64,000 bases of DNA, from assembly GCA_018971045.1 (NCBI GenBank), contig JAGWVF010000005.1:10764-74763 (forward strand), written 5' to 3'. Below, in pieces: positions 10,871 through 63,624 of the stretch; the stretch's first letter is position 1; each line of letters opens with the position of its first letter. The stretch is from Patescibacteria group bacterium. GTDB taxonomy: Bacteria > Patescibacteriota > Minisyncoccia > Phycocordibacterales > Phycocordibacteraceae. Position numbers and translations under genes: made by a program. Below the pieces are notes generated by a model. The model was not told the DNA's origin. It ran no database searches and saw nothing but the letters and a program-made list of their open reading frames with translations.

Positions 10871-10904
10871 AACGCACAGCCGCCCGTACGGGCGGCTGTG
10901 CGTT
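10871..10904 (-). terminator. rho-independent terminator hairpin (perfect 15-bp stem) downstream of tmRNA
   Basis: aacgcacagccgccc-gtac-gggcggctgtgcgtt. Confidence 0.5.
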
Positions 10905-10909
10905 TATTA

Positions 10910-11317
10910 GGTGGAGATGTCGGGAATCGAACCCGAGTCCGAATCTGTTCAGGAAAGCGAGTCTACGGCGCGTAGTCGGCGTTATCTTTAAAGCAGGGTG
11001 CGAGGAACGCAGACGAAACCATCCCTGCCCGATCCCTTATTTAAATGTGCCGGTCGGGAAGCCGGACATCGATTCCGCAGGAGATTCCACCCATCGGCTC
11101 GACTGCAGAAACTCGGAGCCGGCGGATGTCGCGAGGCGAGTGGCCGTTAGGCGACCGCGTGCGCGAACGCGAAATCCTTCATACTGAAGTACGGGGACTT
11201 CGCGCTTGCAAGAGTGTTCTTGGCAAGTTTGATGGCTCGGTGGATTTACGTGGCATACGAGCGTGCACGGCGCCGCACGTCTTTCAAGGTACAGACCGTC
11301 AAAGCCGGTCATCCCCG
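10910..11317 (-). ncRNA. ssrA: tmRNA (SsrA)
   Basis: - The minus-strand 5' end GGGGAUGACCGGCUUUGACGG fits the tmRNA consensus.
- The 3' end is GGUUCGAUUCCCGACAUCUCCACC.
- The acceptor stem pairs with a G3-U70 wobble.
- It lies immediately downstream of smpB. Confidence 0.7.
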
Positions 11318-14250: not shown

Positions 14251-16419
14251 CTACTCCAAATGCATCTCGGCGCTCGCCGCGCTGACGCGCGCGGCGAGCG
14301 CCGGGTGGCGTGAGAGCTCGGGATCCTCGGCGACCAGCCGCGCGGCCTCGCTTCTCGCGGCCTCGACGAGCTTCATATTCTGAAGCGCCTCCATCGCGAT
14401 GTCCGAGACGCCCCACTGGCGGCCGCCTATAAGCTCGCCGGCGCCGCGGAGCGCGAGATCGTATTCGGCGAGCTCGAAGCCGTTCTTCGCGTTTGCGAAG
14501 GCCTTCATCCTCTCGCGCGTCGTCTCGCCCATAGTTTCAGGGAGAGCGAAGCAGTAGCTCTGATGCGTCGAGCGGATCACTCGGCCGCGTAGCTGATGGA
14601 GTTGCGCTAAGCCGAAGCGCTCGGCGCCCTCGACGAGGATCACGGTCGCGTTCGGGACGTTCACTCCCACTTCAACGACTGACGTCGCGACGAGAATATC
14701 TATTGCGCCCGTCGCGAAGCTCTGCATGGTCTCCTCCTTTTCTCCCGGTGTCATCTTGCTGTGCAATACACCGATCTCTGAGTCGGGAAACACCTCTCTG
14801 GAGAGCCGCGCGGCCTCCGCCTTCACCGACTTGGCTTGGAGCGCGAGCTCTCTTGCGGGATCGGGCTCGTCAATGCGAGGGCAGATTACATAGGCTTGAT
14901 GTCTGGCGGCGAGCTCGGAGCGCACGCGCGCGTACGCCCGCTCGCGCTCTTTTGGTCCGAGGATCTCCGTCATGACGGATTTTCGTCCCGCCGGCATCTC
15001 GTCGAGAAGCGTGAGATCGAGATCACCGTAGAGCGTGAGCGCGAGCGTGCGCGGGATGGGAGTCGCGGTCATCGAGAGAAGGTGCGGAGCAATGGAGCTC
15101 TTGGTCGCGAGCCGCTGGCGATGGATCGTCCCGAAGCGATGCTGTTCGTCGATGATCGCGTAGGCGAGATATTTAAAGACGAGCGACTTCTCGACGAGCG
15201 CGTGCGTGCCGATCACGATCGGTATCTCGCCGTTCGCCACCATCTTTTTAAACGCCGCTCTCGAGAGTTTCGCCGACTCTTCGTAGCGTACGCGCGAGGG
15301 GAACTTGCGGCACTCGCTTCCGGTAATAAGCCCGATTGGAATCGGATGATCTTTAAAATACGAAACAAAGGTCGAGAAGTGCTGTTTCGCGAGGATCTCG
15401 GTCGGGCAGAGATACGCGGTCTGCAGGGTTCCCGCGATGCGGCCCTTCGGGAGCGAGGTTGCGACGAGATACGCGGTCGCGGCGGCAACGGCGGTCTTGC
15501 CGCTCCCGACGTCGCCCTCAAGAAGGCGGAGCATCGGGTGCGTCTTTTCAAAATCGCTTACGATCGCGTCGATGGCGCGCTTCTGCGCCGCTGTCGCCGG
15601 AAAAGGGAAGGAGGCGATGAAACTCGCGAGTTTCTCCCGATCGACCGAGACGGGGAGCGCCTCTTCGCGCAGGAGCGCGTTCCGCCGCCGTTGCATGACC
15701 ACCTGAAGCGCGAATACTTCTTCAAAGGCGAACCGCTTGCGCGCCGCATCCGCATCCCCGCTCTTTTGCGGCGTGTGGATGAAGACGAGCGCGGTCGAAA
15801 GCGAGGGGAGGTTATAGCGCGCGAGCATGCTTGGCGGAAGCGGATCGTCGAGCGTCTCATGCGCGCGCGCCTCGAATGCTCTCTTCAGAGCGTGGAAAAA
15901 CCAGAGCGATGAGATTCCTTGGCTTTCCGGGTACATCGGATATAAGAATCGGTCTTGCATCAAGCCCGTTCCTTGATGAAAGAGCGAACCGTGCGCTTCA
16001 TCGGGAATCGCCGAATATCGCTTAATCTCAGGATTTGCCAGATACATTTTCGCTCCCGTTCCCGCCACTCTTCCGTTCACCCGTACCGTCATCCCGTCGT
16101 GGAGCGTCTTCGCGATATACGGCTGGCTGAACCACATCATTTTTATTTTCCCCGACGCGTCTTCAAGCCACGCTTCCGCTACCGGCCGCCGGCTCTTCCA
16201 TGTTTTGCGGATATCGGGCTTGCGCACCGTTCCGTAGAGCGCGGCCTCAGCTCCCGCCGTCACTCCGGCGATCGCGGCCGGAGGCCCGGAGCTTTCGTAA
16301 CGCGAAGGAAAGTGATAGAGAAGATCGCGGATGGTGCGGATCCCGAGCTTGGTAAGCGCGCGCTTCTGATCGCTTCGTAGACGGGTAAAATGCTTCTCGA
16401 TCGCATCGGAGGCGTGCAT
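14251..16419 (-). CDS. recG: ATP-dependent DNA helicase RecG
   Basis: 722 aa. Superfamily 2 helicase motifs (DEQHRFG) with an N-terminal wedge region. Confidence 0.9.
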   Translation of the reverse strand: MHASDAIEKHFTRLRSDQKRALTKLGIRTIRDLLYHFPSRYESSGPPAAIAGVTAGAEAALYGTVRKPDIRKTWKSRRPVAEAWLEDASGKIKMMWFSQPYIAKTLHDGMTVRVNGRVAGTGAKMYLANPEIKRYSAIPDEAHGSLFHQGTGLMQDRFLYPMYPESQGISSLWFFHALKRAFEARAHETLDDPLPPSMLARYNLPSLSTALVFIHTPQKSGDADAARKRFAFEEVFALQVVMQRRRNALLREEALPVSVDREKLASFIASFPFPATAAQKRAIDAIVSDFEKTHPMLRLLEGDVGSGKTAVAAATAYLVATSLPKGRIAGTLQTAYLCPTEILAKQHFSTFVSYFKDHPIPIGLITGSECRKFPSRVRYEESAKLSRAAFKKMVANGEIPIVIGTHALVEKSLVFKYLAYAIIDEQHRFGTIHRQRLATKSSIAPHLLSMTATPIPRTLALTLYGDLDLTLLDEMPAGRKSVMTEILGPKERERAYARVRSELAARHQAYVICPRIDEPDPARELALQAKSVKAEAARLSREVFPDSEIGVLHSKMTPGEKEETMQSFATGAIDILVATSVVEVGVNVPNATVILVEGAERFGLAQLHQLRGRVIRSTHQSYCFALPETMGETTRERMKAFANAKNGFELAEYDLALRGAGELIGGRQWGVSDIAMEALQNMKLVEAARSEAARLVAEDPELSRHPALAARVSAASAEMHLE

Positions 16420-27931: not shown

Positions 27932-27939
27932 CCATCTCT

Positions 27940-28272
27940 CTGACCGGATCGGTAAGCCGAGTTCTGTCGCGGGCGATCATGTATCTTGGCCCTTCGTTGC
28001 CTCGGGGCTCGAGCGGCACTTCCCTCGATTGCTCTCGGGACACGGCCTTGCATACGGGTAAGGGTTTGTTCGTTGCAAACCTGCCTCGCGGCAGGTTTAT
28101 TCCACAAGGGAATTCCTTCACTTTCGATCGGGACGTTTCTGTAGTCACCTCTATCCTCGCGGACGACGGGCGTTACCCGCTACCTTTTTCCCGGGTCAAG
28201 CCCGGGAATATGCTCGGACTTTCCTCTCCAGCCGCGAAAGAGCGGTTGGAGCGATCGCCTGATCCGGTCCAT
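27940..28272 (-). ncRNA. rnpB: RNase P RNA (bacterial type A)
   Basis: - Minus strand contains the P4 motif GGAGAGGAAAGUCCGAGC.
- It also contains the 3' motif GACAGAACUCGGCUUACC.
- P1 pairing: GACCGGAUC with GAUCCGGUC. Confidence 0.75.
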
Positions 28273-28297: not shown

Positions 28298-28966
28298 TTA
28301 AAGAATATCCGTCTCGGCACGATATAGCCGAGCCTCTCGGAACCTCTTCTGCAGAGGAGCTATGCCCTCCACGGGCGGTATTTCCGCATCTAAGATGCCG
28401 TTTATCGGCGTCGCCCCGCCGTAATAGGCGCCGAGGCTTGAATACGGATATGCCGCCAGGTGTTCCTCAACGAACTGATGGTCAACGACATGGCCCGTTC
28501 TCCATCCGGGTTCGTATAAATCGGCCGGTATGCAGTGAATATAGCTGATGAGGTGCGGGTATTGTTTGAGAGATACATGGAAGGACTGAAATGGCTTAAG
28601 AAATAGATTTCCATGGCGTTCATACCGCGCATTAAAATAGAGCGTATACGCCGTTCCAACCTTCCGCATGAAGGTAGTGATACCTCCATCCGAGACTTCT
28701 CTCAGCGCTAAATGGAAATGGTTCGGCATGAGGCAAAAGGCGGCAATAGACACGATCCTTTTACCGCGAGGCATGCGCAATACCTCTTCGAATTTCCGAG
28801 TCCCGATATCGTTCCGCCGAAGAGGAAATTCGTCATTCGCCAGATACAGGATTTCTAGAAAACGCTGGTAATCCCGAACATCTTCAAATGCAATTCTCTT
28901 ATCAATGCTGTAATTATAGCAATGGTACCATTCACCGACCGTAAATGGAGCATCTCTCCTCATCAT
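28298..28966 (-). CDS. Y1 HUH transposase, IS200/IS605-TnpA / RayT-like
   Basis: HUH motif LMPNHFHLAL and tyrosine motif YIHCIP. The N-terminal YHCYNYSIDKRIAFEDVRDYQRFLEIL block is typical of this family. Confidence 0.7.
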   Translation of the reverse strand: MMRRDAPFTVGEWYHCYNYSIDKRIAFEDVRDYQRFLEILYLANDEFPLRRNDIGTRKFEEVLRMPRGKRIVSIAAFCLMPNHFHLALREVSDGGITTFMRKVGTAYTLYFNARYERHGNLFLKPFQSFHVSLKQYPHLISYIHCIPADLYEPGWRTGHVVDHQFVEEHLAAYPYSSLGAYYGGATPINGILDAEIPPVEGIAPLQKRFREARLYRAETDIL

Positions 28967-28991
28967 TATTTATAATTTTAAAGGTGTCACC

Positions 28992-29048
28992 TCTTGGAGT
29001 CAAGAATATATAGAGAAATATTAGGTGACACCTAGCGGAATTATGTGG
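28992..29048. repeat. inverted pair of 11-bp palindromes (AGGTGTCACCT / AGGTGACACCT) in an AT-rich region upstream of the Y1 transposase
   Basis: aaAGGTGTCACCTcttgg…attAGGTGACACCTagcgg. Confidence 0.4.
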
Positions 29049-35798: not shown

Positions 35799-35837
35799 GG
35801 TTGAATTCTATACCGAATAAAGACTGCAAGAAACCAA

Positions 35838-35865
35838 GAAACGCCGCTAATTAGCGGCGTTTCTT
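35838..35865. terminator. hairpin terminator aagaaacgccgctaa/ttagcggcgtttctt
   Basis: Perfect 13-bp stem. It contains the stop codon of the small basic ORF. Confidence 0.45.
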
Positions 35866-35976
35866 GCTGCGGCGCTCGCGCAACGCGGCACCAGCAACGC
35901 TCCGAACGATCCGGCGCTTACCGTTTCTCAAAAGTCGGCTGGCTTCGCTTGCGACACGTTTACTTGTTTTTGCCAT
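35851..35976 (-). CDS. very basic 41-aa protein (MAKTSKRVASEASRLLRNGKRRIVRSVAGAALRERRSKKRR)
   Basis: Hand-translated. It lies between the Ubl/E1 operon and the terminator hairpin. It is absent from the ORF track because it is under 60 aa. Confidence 0.3.
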   Translation of the reverse strand: MAKTSKRVASEASRLLRNGKRRIVRSVAGAALRERRSKKRR

Positions 35977-40576: not shown

Positions 40577-40798
40577 CTTGGACGGTAGACCCATTAAGAG
40601 CTATCATGTTCTATACAACTGAATATCAGTCGGCCTAAACCATAGTTTTCTATGGCATGGCCGAGAAGCCGTCCAAGGCAGAAAGCTCCTCGTCGGGAGC
40701 AACCTTGGACGGTCCCACCGGGAAACTGGTGGTGGGTGGCGCAAGCCATCGCCTGGCGGGGAGCTTTGTGTATTCCAGCCAGTAAAAACCGTCCAAGG
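40577..40798. repeat. four copies of CCGTCCAAGG in alternating orientation upstream of mod
   Basis: Copies at 40577-85 (reverse), 40669-78 (forward), 40704-13 (reverse), 40789-98 (forward, abutting the mod ATG). Confidence 0.45.
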
Positions 40799-60650: not shown

Positions 60651-61847
60651 TTATGCGAGCGAACGATTGCCGTCCGCCGTAATGTCGGTCGCGAACTCGC
60701 GGCGGAGCGCGCGGTAATAGCCAGCAAGCGCGATCATAATCGCATTATCAGTCGTGAGCGAGGCGGCAGGAATGCGGAGCGCAACCTGCGGATAATCAGC
60801 GGCTATCTTATGAGTGAAAGTGCGGCGGATGTGCGTGTTCGCCGAAACGCCGCCGCCGATGACGAGCGTTCGCGCCCCGGTCTCTTCGAGCGCTCGTGCG
60901 GTTTTCTTCCAGAGGACATCCGTAACCGCGTCTTCGAACTCATGCGCGAGGTGCATCTTTTCAGTATCGTCGAGCGGCGGGCGGTTTTTGAGAAGATAAA
61001 GCACGGCTGTCTTGAGGCCGGCGAAGGAGAAGTCGCAAGTCAATGAATCAATCATCGGTCGCGGCAACGTAATCTTGGACATCGGATGTCCTAGTTCAGA
61101 AACTAGGACATCCGATGTCCTAACTTGTTCGGCGAGGCGCGAGATCTCGGGACCGCCCGGATAGGGGAGGTCGAGCATGCGCGCAACCTTATCAAACGCC
61201 TCGCCGACCGCGTCGTCGCGCGTTTGTCCGATGAGCTCGTAGTCGAGCCATTTTTTCATGAGCACGAGCTCGGTATGGCCGCCGGAGATGAGAAGGGCGA
61301 TCACCGGCATTTGGACGCCGCGAATCAGGAGCGATTCCTCATCGCCCTTTTCTGCGAGCGCGGCCATCACGTGGCCTTCCATATGGTTCACCGCGACGAG
61401 CGGCTTCTGCCACAAGAGCGCGAGCGCTTTCGCGAAATTGATGCCGACCCAGAGCGCGGGTTCGAGGCCGGGACCCGCGGTTACCGCGATTACGTCGATT
61501 GGCGGCGTCTCACATTCGCTTACGAATTCAAAAAAAGCTTCGGCGAGCGAGTGTTCGCGCGACAAGATCGCGGCGATCTCGCTGCGTATTTCTTCGGGGA
61601 TGGATCGAGTATCTTCACGCAGGAGTTCTGCCTCCTCAAGCGCGGCTTCAAGGAGAGGAACGAGGTTCTTCGCGTGTTCGCGCTTCGCAAGCGCCGGGAA
61701 GACGCCTCCGTATTCCGCATGAAGAGCGACTTGCGAGAGGAGCGTATTGCCGAGTACGGTGAATCGGGCATCCGTCTCATTTCCCGCACATTCGAGAATC
61801 GCGATCGCGGTTTCGTCGCAAGAAGTCTCGATGGAGAGTATCTTCAT
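60651..61847 (-). CDS. tsaD: tRNA N6-adenosine threonylcarbamoyltransferase TsaD
   Basis: MKILSIETSCDETAIAI start. Kae1/TsaD motifs. It carries a palindromic in-frame insertion. Confidence 0.85.
   Translation of the reverse strand: MKILSIETSCDETAIAILECAGNETDARFTVLGNTLLSQVALHAEYGGVFPALAKREHAKNLVPLLEAALEEAELLREDTRSIPEEIRSEIAAILSREHSLAEAFFEFVSECETPPIDVIAVTAGPGLEPALWVGINFAKALALLWQKPLVAVNHMEGHVMAALAEKGDEESLLIRGVQMPVIALLISGGHTELVLMKKWLDYELIGQTRDDAVGEAFDKVARMLDLPYPGGPEISRLAEQVRTSDVLVSELGHPMSKITLPRPMIDSLTCDFSFAGLKTAVLYLLKNRPPLDDTEKMHLAHEFEDAVTDVLWKKTARALEETGARTLVIGGGVSANTHIRRTFTHKIAADYPQVALRIPAASLTTDNAIMIALAGYYRALRREFATDITADGNRSLA
61077..61120. repeat. 44-bp perfect palindrome (20-bp arms) inside tsaD
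   Basis: ggacatcggatgtcctagtt-caga-aactaggacatccgatgtcc. The palindrome encodes TSDVLVSELGHPMS in frame. Confidence 0.8.
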
Positions 61848-62754: not shown

Positions 62755-63624
62755 TCAGCGCATAAAACGCACATACATTCCCGATGGGATGACGCGTTCG
62801 TTCGTTGATTCTTTAATGTACAGCTCGCCGCATTCGCCGGCTGTCTCGCCGAAGACACTCTCGATCGCCTGCGCGAACGAGCGCGGCGCATAGCCGGCCG
62901 CATAGCCGTTCGCGAGAAAAAAAGATCCCGGCTGATCATTGAAAATCTTTTTAAGTATGTCCAATAACGGAGTGAAATCCGTTTCGATTTTCCACACTTC
63001 GCCCTTAGCGCCGCGGCCAAAGGCGGGCGGATCGAGGATGATGCCGTCGTACGCGACGCCGCGGCGCGCTTCGCGCTTCGCGAACGCGAACGCGTCATCG
63101 AGTATCCAGCGGATCGCGTCCTCGCTCACTCCCGTGAGTTCGGCATTCTCGCGGGCCCAATCAAGCGACTGTCTCGAGGCGTCGACGTGCGTAATGAACG
63201 CGCCTTTCTGCGCCGCAATGATCGAGGCGATGCCGGTGTAGCCGAAGAGATTAAGCACCTGGGGCACGCGGGAGGTCGTTCGACCGAGGTGCTCCGAGAG
63301 CCACTGCCAATTCGGCGCCTGCTCCGGAAAGACGCCGGTATGCTTGAAGCCGGTGAGGCGTGCGACGAAGCGGATATCGTTCCATGAGAGCCGCCACGAC
63401 GCCGGTACTGACGGTTTTCTCTCCCACGCGCCTTTTGCGCCCTCGAAGGAAAAGCGGGCATGCGCCGACTCCCAGAGATCGGGGTGCCGCTTTTTCCACA
63501 GGGCCTGCGTCTCGGGACGCGCCACGATGACAGCGCCGAAGCGCTCGAGCTTCTCCCCACTGCCCGAATCAAGGAGTTCGTAATCGCTCCACGGGAGAGA
63601 GGTGAGATGCCGGTCGAATATCAT
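62755..63624 (-). CDS. class I SAM-dependent RNA methyltransferase (RlmI/RlmK-like)
   Basis: FGYTG SAM motif, ILDPPAF. Confidence 0.6.
   Translation of the reverse strand: MIFDRHLTSLPWSDYELLDSGSGEKLERFGAVIVARPETQALWKKRHPDLWESAHARFSFEGAKGAWERKPSVPASWRLSWNDIRFVARLTGFKHTGVFPEQAPNWQWLSEHLGRTTSRVPQVLNLFGYTGIASIIAAQKGAFITHVDASRQSLDWARENAELTGVSEDAIRWILDDAFAFAKREARRGVAYDGIILDPPAFGRGAKGEVWKIETDFTPLLDILKKIFNDQPGSFFLANGYAAGYAPRSFAQAIESVFGETAGECGELYIKESTNERVIPSGMYVRFMR

Follow-up and report, generated by a model that had tools for sequence, protein, structure and literature searches.

A translated REPIN-like doublet in the tsaD gene of a Patescibacteria bacterium and its relation to a RAYT-associated family of palindromic repeats

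Short palindromic repeats of the REP and REPIN types, together with the RAYT transposases linked to them, have been studied mostly in Proteobacteria and are extragenic by definition, and the classic translated selfish palindromes are those of Rickettsia. The Rickettsia palindromic elements (RPE) were reportedly described by Ogata et al. in 2000. RPE-1 is approximately 100-150 bp long, and the shorter RPE-4 and RPE-6 are CGTC-tagged and lack a dedicated transposase. Patescibacteria (the candidate phyla radiation, CPR) have gene-dense genomes of approximately 1 Mb with odd insertions in conserved genes. In this work, a perfect 44-bp palindrome located in frame within the tsaD gene of a Patescibacteria group bacterium was analyzed. 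The DNA studied, hereafter called the window, is a stretch of 64,000 nt from contig JAGWVF010000005.1 (assembly GCA_018971045.1). The palindrome is very probably an element of the REP/REPIN type, composed of two inverted hairpin units of 25-29 bp that are associated with a RAYT gene in related genomes. It is a translated REPIN-like doublet from a Patescibacteria REP-RAYT family and not a new mechanism.

REP and REPIN elements and the corresponding RAYT (TnpA-REP) are known from E. coli and Pseudomonas (PMC3116915, PMC3333891, PMC3479197, PMC5581495). Unlike a classical REP, the copy in the window is not extragenic, although intragenic REPs are documented exceptions (PMC3733652). Intragenic REPs with GTAG/CGTC tags were found in Opitutus terrae, Rickettsia conorii and other bacteria, and more than half of them were dimers encoding 20-30 aa (Di Nocera et al. 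2013, PMC3733652). In two Xanthomonas species, different REPs occupied approximately the same site in recB, and the surveyed hosts of GTAG repeats were Proteobacteria, Cyanobacteria, Chloroflexi and the Planctomycetes-Verrucomicrobia-Chlamydiae (PVC) group, Patescibacteria not being among them (PMC3733652). RPEs are mentioned in PMC3733652 and PMC1779305. No literature joining REP, REPIN or RAYT with Patescibacteria, CPR or Parcubacteria was found, which is absence of evidence only.

The element in the window and its host gene are organized as follows (coordinates are those of the window).

60651-61847, minus strand: coding sequence of tsaD hosting the element; 398 aa, ATG at 61847, stop codon included.
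61077-61120, no strand assigned: the tsaD palindrome, a REPIN-like doublet, i.e., two inverted REP units able to pair into one long hairpin.
61101-61125, minus strand: REP unit 1 (5' in the mRNA), AGTTA-GGACATCGGATGTCC-TAGTT, read as VRTSDVLV; the 5' tag is a TTAG variant, and the 3' tag is a CTAG variant.
61106-61120, no strand assigned: core of unit 1, the 15-nt mini-palindrome GGACATC-C-GATGTCC.
61097-61100, no strand assigned: spacer of 4 nt, CAGA on the plus strand and UCUG in the mRNA; apical loop of the doublet hairpin.
61072-61096, minus strand: REP unit 2, AACTA-GGACATCCGATGTCC-AAGAT, in another frame, read as (E)LGHPMSK(I); the 3' tag is CAAG, not CTAG.
61077-61091, no strand assigned: core of unit 2, the 15-nt mini-palindrome GGACATC-G-GATGTCC.

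The sequence ggacatcggatgtcctagtt-caga-aactaggacatccgatgtcc at 61077-61120 was found to be a perfect 20+4+20 palindrome, the arms of which were 100% complementary over 20 nt, and a 7+1+7 mini-palindrome, GGACATC-S-GATGTCC, was present in each arm. Both properties had been given in a preliminary description of this DNA and were confirmed. An element of 44 bp cannot be an in-frame unit; the units were redefined as the two 25-bp segments listed above. Their outer half-arms have diverged, and each unit of the doublet carries three mismatches to the canonical unit, all in the outer half-arm. Thus, as in REP/REPIN-RAYT systems, short hairpin units are arranged as an inverted pair with a short spacer, which yields a longer hairpin (the REPIN design). 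The 84-nt neighborhood of the element was predicted to fold far more stably than shuffled sequence, at -42.8 kcal/mol for RNA (z = -8.7) and -26.2 kcal/mol for DNA (z = -8.2).

Multiple displacement amplification (MDA) or mis-assembly can create palindromes, and the source of this contig is probably a metagenome-assembled genome (MAG). However, the DNA of the tsaD palindrome was identical across three independent read-set assemblies; therefore, an assembly artefact was excluded. In addition, homologous palindromes were present in dozens of other assemblies, none of 100 dinucleotide-preserving shuffles of the window matched the 20-nt arm, the reading frame was preserved, and the model of the encoded protein was confident. 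Considering these data, the probability that the palindrome is a chimera formed during assembly or amplification, or that it arose by chance, is close to nil.

The open reading frame (ORF) 60651-61847 was identified as TsaD by TIGR03723 (347.6 bits versus a cut-off of 296.1). Its product was 100% identical to a recorded 398-aa protein (P0001), was matched by solved TsaD structures at E = 1e-70, and retained the HMEGH motif along with the remaining invariant residues. The tsaD gene is therefore intact. The element is translated as VRTSDVLVSELGHPMSK, the in-frame region reads RLAEQVRTSDVLVSELGHPMSKITLPRPM, and the position of the element in TsaD is the loop preceding the LPRPM motif. When aligned with solved TsaD structures, the segment tsdvlvselghpm fell opposite a 13-residue gap. 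The stretch from PGGP to PRPM contained 36 residues in the window protein versus 28 in palindrome-free Patescibacteria orthologues.

The AlphaFold model of the window TsaD had a mean predicted local distance difference test (pLDDT) score of 92.4. Residues 241-260, with pLDDT values of 72 and 68, were its sole low-confidence stretch, the neighboring blocks scoring at least 88. The model fits a flexible loop at these residues, in line with the earlier suggestion that a surface loop accommodates the insertion. The PGGP...PRPM stretch varied in length from 28 to 59 residues across the 120 TsaD clusters that were closest (68-78% identity); the REP peptide was found in 22 of these clusters, in 15 of them in doublet form. 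The insert in TsaD is probably neutral and probably does not contribute to the synthesis of t6A.

The exact 20-mer arm was searched for in a collection containing one genome per prokaryotic species (596 Gb), in which approximately one chance match to a 20-mer was expected. It was found at 30 loci, all of them in Patescibacteria MAGs labeled Adlerbacteria, Nomurabacteria, Paceibacterota, Minisyncoccia or "Saccharibacteria". Individual loci in other genomes are denoted below by L-numbers (L001, etc.). Oriented alignment of the copies gave a single palindrome of 25-29 bp as the usual unit, (A)AACTA-GGACATC-S-GATGTCC-TAGTT(T), with arms perfect over 12-14 nt around one central base and with stable predicted hairpins. 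The tag at the foot of the hairpin was canonically CTAG; TTAG was present in L033, L075 and L111-L116, and GTAG was present in L074 and L071. In REP/REPIN-RAYT systems, the tag at the 5' foot of the hairpin is a conserved GTAG, with which the present units would share the TAG ending. The 20+4+20 doublet design of the window was found in L031 as well, with a compensatory T/A swap, and a doublet with a palindromic spacer was found in the methyltransferase gene of L041, L048, L050 and L059. A scan of viral contigs for the arm returned no matches and thus gave no sign of a phage vector. When direct repeats were looked for at the flanks of the copies, the flanks proved to be inverted-complementary instead, with no direct target-site duplication.

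Approximately 12 of the 30 loci (roughly 40%) were intragenic and in frame. Outside tsaD, the unit was in frame in an IscS-like aminotransferase of class V (Aminotran_5), TrmD, Tgt, DnaG, an alpha/beta hydrolase, ATP synthase gamma, MnmA and the C-terminus of ATP synthase alpha (loci L009, L010, L013, L015, L017, L018, L021 and L030); it was also in frame in TsaD of L001, L014 and L025 and was located inside an S-adenosylmethionine (SAM) methyltransferase in L082. In the host proteins, single Pfam domain matches ran across the inserted unit. All in-frame copies read (T/V)RTSDVL(V/T). The other two frames of the unit hit TAG or TAA within the tag, and these stops were seen in the element of the window; this explains why a single frame is used by all in-frame copies.

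The centers of the two units of the doublet are 29 nt apart; therefore, unit 2 falls into a stop-containing frame. In the window, however, unit 2 ends in TCC AAG (S K), not in TCC TAG. Each of the eight orthologues with a doublet had CAAG, CACG, CACA, CGAA or CAAC as the 3' tag of unit 2, and TAG or TAA was present in none of them. Since unit 2 has lost the TAG stop (CTAG to CAAG), it can be concluded that the element is translated; on the side of the sequence, this loss is direct evidence of translation.

The RPE-like nature proposed in the preliminary description was supported. As with the Rickettsia RPE, the element is selfish palindromic DNA that is translated in frame in essential genes at positions compatible with the fold, and it belongs to a dispersed repeat that is in frame in other housekeeping genes. 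The identification was made more precise: the likeness to RPE is one of function only, and the tsaD element does not fall into the Rickettsia RPE families, has no sequence relation to them and is of the REP/REPIN type, with a 25-bp NTAG-tagged unit, a 44-bp doublet and a Patescibacteria host. As with the intragenic GTAG/CGTC REPs, singlets and dimers are in frame in housekeeping genes, including those of DNA and RNA metabolism, and different repeats occupy the same orthologous site. Unlike in REP/REPIN-RAYT systems, a large share of the copies is intragenic and in frame.

An association with a RAYT-type transposase was found in other genomes and not in the window. In L008 and L022, inverted copies of the unit approximately 690 bp apart enclosed an ORF of 215-217 aa. 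Inverted units on both sides were also found around the RAYT-type gene in L111-L117, where four further proteins of the family were located on contigs, and in L011, one flanking unit was seen before the contig end. The flanking unit was AAGTTAGGACATCsGATGTCCTAACTT in L111-L114, AAAGTTAGGACAC-N3-GTGTCCTAACTTT in L115 and L116, and AAACTAGGACACGCCGTGTCCTAGTTT in L117. Hence, the repeat sequence co-varied with the transposase, having either TTAG/CTAA tags or a GGACAC-N3-GTGTCC core. The 3' flanking unit overlapped the end of the called RAYT gene. Many RAYT-bearing contigs were only approximately 1 kb long, as would be expected if assembly had broken off at the repeats on either side.

The unit-flanked ORF matched Pfam Y1_Tnp with 35.8 bits versus a cut-off of 23, and its best NCBIfam family was REP_Tyr_transpos (41.5 and 33.1 bits). 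The HUH motif (N-H-Y-H; H69-x-H71) and the tyrosine of YIHxNP, Y129, were invariant in the RAYT-type proteins. The AlphaFold model of the protein had a mean pLDDT of 82, and its top Foldseek match was 4ER8_A (E = 2e-5, target TM-score 0.67), the structure of the E. coli RAYT in complex with a REP hairpin, followed by IS608 and ISDra2 TnpA. More than 2,200 relatives were found at E <= 1e-20, and the source names among the matches listed were all of the Patescibacteria type. A neighborhood with SMC upstream and RNase R downstream of the RAYT gene was present in L022, L111 and L113-L115, and that of L117 differed on one side. A conserved neighborhood has been described for vertically inherited, single-copy RAYTs (PMC5581495). 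Thus, as in known REP/REPIN-RAYT systems, the units in relatives flank a presumably single-copy Y1 HUH gene in inverted orientation (a REPtron), most of these genes have a shared neighborhood that may reflect conserved synteny, and the best fold match is 4ER8. A transposable element of the miniature inverted-repeat type (MITE) was also considered as a candidate and was rejected: there was no direct target duplication, and the associated enzyme was Y1, not DDE.

The window contains one gene that resembles this transposase.

28298-28966, minus strand: RAYT-like gene, 222 aa, Pfam Y1_Tnp 25.8 bits, HUH motif NHFH.

It was considered as the cognate enzyme of the tsaD element and rejected, since it is a remote paralogue whose flanking motif is different: two copies of another palindrome of 11 nt, AGGTGWCACCT, precede it at 28982-28992 and 29023-29033. 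It is adjoined by the RNase P RNA (27937-28270). The motif AGGTGWCACCT was also seen inside tsaD in L025, L043, L102 and L108, at a third insert site (approximately aa 165-175).

Several observations weigh against assigning the tsaD palindrome to a RAYT-mobilized REP family. The RAYT-like protein of the window shared only 36% identity with the RAYT that has the tsaD-type repeat at its flanks, and the cognate SMC-RAYT-RNase R locus was not found in the 64-kb window, SMC being absent there. When further copies of the arm or of the 15-mer core were searched for across the whole window with up to three mismatches, only the tsaD site was found; the copies elsewhere were those in other Patescibacteria genomes. 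Even there, with 2-5 exact-arm loci per MAG (e.g., JAGWYL01 and CAIWUA01), the copy number was far below that of classical REP families. Unlike in known REP/REPIN-RAYT systems, the unit is perfectly two-fold symmetric and carries the tag on both arms, and the tags CTAG and TTAG are commoner than GTAG. The protein of approximately 215 aa scored below the NCBIfam equivalog cut-off of 80 for REP_Tyr_transpos, a sequence-only search of the PDB with it gave no match, and a profile search of the PDB gave only a marginal match to ISDra2 TnpA (E = 0.45).

The loop of tsaD provided further points of this kind. Its length was 29 residues with a singlet, 36 with a doublet and 28 without a palindrome, so the net change is small. 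Because singlets add only 1 aa, acquisition was not a simple insertion. Neither a transposition event nor a presence/absence polymorphism between close strains was seen, the nearest TsaD cluster being 78% identical. Mobility of the element in this genome is putative, and the association with RAYT was observed in relatives only.

The tsaD loop was compared at the DNA level in 84 loci. Orthologues at least approximately 67% identical often carried long perfect palindromes at the loop site. The GGACATC family was represented by singlets in L025 (15+1+15), L033 and L075 and by doublets in the window, L031, L037, L040, L074 and L078. Unrelated palindromes were found in the same loop, e.g., GGATTTCCGAAACCCCACATC-A-GATGTGGGGTTTCGGAAATCC (21+1+21), CAAGGTTGAACCTT...AAGGTTCAACCTTG, a 19+1+19 palindrome and a 23+5+23 palindrome. 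Different palindrome families held the site in interleaved branches of the TsaD tree. In distant orthologues (at most 66% identity, with 28-residue loops), no palindrome was found at the site. The preliminary description had regarded sharing of the peptide without palindromic DNA, together with a lack of other copies, as a sign of ordinary coding sequence; however, the orthologues that share the peptide keep the palindromic DNA, and there are copies elsewhere.

Eight doublet orthologues, with TsaD 68-78% identical, aligned gaplessly over 84 nt. Such an alignment at an orthologous position, together with the single copy in the window and with degraded versions in orthologues (e.g., RELGGSTSKF), could be expected if the element had been inserted once in an ancient ancestor and were now neutrally drifting, vertically inherited coding sequence, its perfect arms being a leftover. 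However, in the aligned orthologues, the core columns of unit 1 varied only at the central base and at one position substituted in L078, and those of unit 2 varied only at the central base and in L040, which had a variant core. Pairwise nucleotide identity was 0.68-0.95 in the loop (0.95 between the window and L037) versus 0.63-0.74 in the rest of the gene and only 0.40-0.56 at synonymous third positions of tsaD. Hence, judging from these alignments, the hypervariable protein loop, where it is REP-derived, is encoded by DNA conserved above the neutral level. Considering in addition that the changes in the arms are compensated, one of them at a synonymous site, and that unrelated families occupy the site in interleaved branches, a single ancient insertion followed by drift is unlikely.

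The compensatory changes were as follows. The sequences CTAGTT and AACTAG of the window were replaced by CAAGTT and AACTTG in L031, both arms being changed, and a one-sided intermediate was present in L037. In L031, L037 and L040, a synonymous change of CTA to CTT (Leu) re-paired with the CAAG imposed by the frame. When the aligned sequences were evaluated for a structure with two singlet hairpins, 86% of the cells were paired, and seven pairs were changed on both sides; the covariation score was 0.165 versus 0.083 in shuffles, and none of 500 shuffles reached it. Covariation for the doublet hairpin was weaker, with four pairs changed on both sides and with the score reached in 17 of 500 shuffles. 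The structure with two singlets thus fits better. With eight related sequences, neither test is strong, and both are no more than suggestive of maintenance of the structure; the pairwise identities given above are the stronger result.

Recurrence of palindromes at the tsaD site in many orthologues, the compensatory changes, the conservation of the loop DNA in excess of synonymous sites and the very stable 20-bp stem predicted in the mRNA would also be in line with a hairpin that has a dedicated role in cis for tsaD or its operon, either as an mRNA structure adjusting translation or decay (e.g., an RNase III site) or as a symmetric operator of a dimeric DNA-binding protein. However, the unit also occurs at sites with no relation to this one, within other genes, between genes and around a transposase gene, and some orthologues have an unrelated palindrome or none at the site. 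A sequence-specific operator was rejected since the arm sequence changes in a compensatory manner, which is incompatible with such a function. Mismatches in the companion tsaD palindrome were of the GU type in 19 cases and of the AC type in 14, a ratio that is not discriminating; thus, selection specific to RNA was not indicated. The stem is located mid-way through the coding sequence, and the mRNA continues after it with AAGAUUACGUUGCC; an intrinsic terminator was rejected because of this position and because no U-tract follows the stem. A dedicated cis-acting role of the hairpin is therefore very unlikely, and the protein-binding or cruciform site, which had been offered earlier as an alternative, received no specific support.

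With these alternatives considered, a REP/REPIN-type element with turnover at the tsaD loop remains the preferred explanation. The neighbor-joining tree of TsaD was nearly star-like at approximately 75% identity, and vertical descent and repeated insertion were not separated by it. Loop conservation, family turnover and the star-like tree together indicate re-acquisition, conversion from a repeat pool or constraint on the DNA. In L001 and L014, the two units were not inverted but repeated directly over 22 bp (AGGACATCCGATGTCCAC[G/A]TTC, twice), and this arrangement suggests, as a reading of the two sequences, conversion between the two units in either orientation. Most likely, the arms are kept complementary at the DNA level by re-insertion, by conversion from the repeat pool or by hairpin-templated correction during replication; selection on the peptide is a less likely cause of arm complementarity. 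Compared with the intragenic GTAG/CGTC REPs, tsaD differs in that this gene alone has several palindrome-bearing sites and in that one site combines turnover of multiple families with compensatory evolution of the arms.

Outside the core, the singlet copies showed a further regularity. In 29 non-redundant singlets, the flanks past the conserved AAA/TTT varied from copy to copy yet paired with each other. Their summed perfect extension was 141 nt versus 86.9 +/- 4.5 nt in shuffles (maximum 107), a significant excess, and an extension of at least 7 nt was found in seven copies versus 0.4 expected. The copies L002, L010, L013, L017 and L027, all from one MAG (JAGWYL01), each had a different outer stem. 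Past the 21-nt core, the outer arms added up to 12 nt to the palindrome. The TrmD copy was a perfect palindrome of 45 bp encoding KAFKTRTSDVLVLKA. Outer arms that are variable yet complementary distinguish this family from REP/REPIN-RAYT systems. As far as can be judged from such patterns, the complementary flanks correspond neither to a direct target duplication nor to a common master sequence. They would arise either by insertion into the centers of small pre-existing hairpins or by templated outward growth of the arms.

Template switching at quasi-palindromes is known to perfect imperfect inverted repeats and to extend arm identity (PMC7202029, PMC3820800). Such a process would give compensatory changes without selection as well as the outward arm growth observed here. 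Template switching is a way in which mutations arise and not a family of elements, and its action at tsaD would be deduced from sequence patterns only. We infer that DNA-level, hairpin-templated template switching acts on top of RAYT-driven turnover, and this is the reading preferred here.

If E. coli RAYT and IS200/IS605 are taken as analogues, the unit would fold as a hairpin of single-stranded DNA, and the RAYT would recognize and cut this hairpin at the NTAG foot, after which the unit would be pasted elsewhere. In gene-dense genomes, many copies would land in coding sequences, and those copies would survive only if the frame were kept and the loop tolerated any sequence. In tsaD, the stop codon due from unit 2 has been mutated away, and the loop would act as a recurrent landing and turnover site for one unit, two units or other families.

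A broader possibility can be put forward tentatively: REP/REPIN-like palindromes may be a systematic and ongoing source of lineage-specific protein insertions in Patescibacteria, with families recolonizing the same loops (up to four sites in tsaD and one in the methyltransferase) and with a DNA-level, hairpin-templated process keeping the arms paired and extending them into the flanks. If this were true, the elements would be unlike classical extragenic REPs, and the mechanism of insertion and extension may be undescribed. The distinctive features are the high in-frame share in essential genes, reuse of the same loops by several families, maintenance of perfect arms, and variable yet complementary flanks. 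If general, these would supply a concrete mechanism by which some lineage-specific insertions in the proteins of Patescibacteria arise and a natural series of orthologous loops for studying the upkeep of palindromes in coding DNA. They would also call for caution on the part of annotators and structure predictors, such loops being repeat-derived and not functional motifs.

Palindromes were also seen elsewhere in tsaD. A second one is located at 61565-61590 of the window (codons ~87-97), in an N-terminal insert of approximately 36 aa that is missing from solved TsaDs and for which AlphaFold gave confident helices. In many orthologues, it is a perfect 16+1+16 palindrome, CGCGCGCCAAAATTTC-T-GAAATTTTGGCGCGCG (L040, 3260-3292, and more than 20 other loci), and the compensatory variants CGCCAAGATTTC/GAAATCTTGGCG and CGACAAAATTGC/GCAATTTTGTCG were found. 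The copy in the window is degraded to AGATCGC-c-GCGATCT on the coding strand, with a 7-bp stem. At a fourth tsaD position, near the 3' end, palindromes of the form GGACAC-N3-GTGTCC were found in L046 (4064-4086), L061 (4091-4113), L075 (1010-1034), L037 (2382) and L078 (3003). Their core is the one flanking the RAYT genes in L115-L117, and compared with solved TsaDs, the net length was almost unchanged. In some cases, therefore, repeat-like sequence may take the place of coding sequence instead of lengthening it.

The gene of a SAM methyltransferase (62755-63624), located two genes upstream of tsaD, contains a palindrome hotspot at 63270-63300 (minus strand), between FPEQ..W.W and VLNLFGYTG. 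The baseline length of this region was 29-31 aa, and the hotspot was represented in L041, L048, L050, L059, L071 and L082. Orthologues with perfect REPIN-like doublets of 43-51 bp, e.g., AGGACATCGGAAGTCC-TACATCAGATGTA-GGACTTCCGATGTCCT, had 43-44 aa in this region. In the window, it comprised 33 aa (HLGRTTSRV), with a 5+2+5 remnant only. A longer insert, ...RK.SGRPEGG.PRTFSQ..., was found both in the tsaD loop (L060 and L068) and in the methyltransferase loop (L063, L068 and L101). A scan of this insert for perfect arms of at least 7 nt found none, and it may represent a further mobile family whose arms are imperfect or whose loop is larger.

Three other perfect palindromes of the window, unrelated in sequence to the tsaD element, may be terminators: 10871-10904 (17+0+17), directly 3' of the tmRNA gene (10909-11316, minus strand), 35835-35866 (16+0+16) and 14268-14303 (15+6+15). 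An Rfam scan of the window identified RNase P RNA, tmRNA and five tRNAs, as well as a LOOT RNA at 40632-40750 on the plus strand (86.6 bits versus a gathering score of 46.4).

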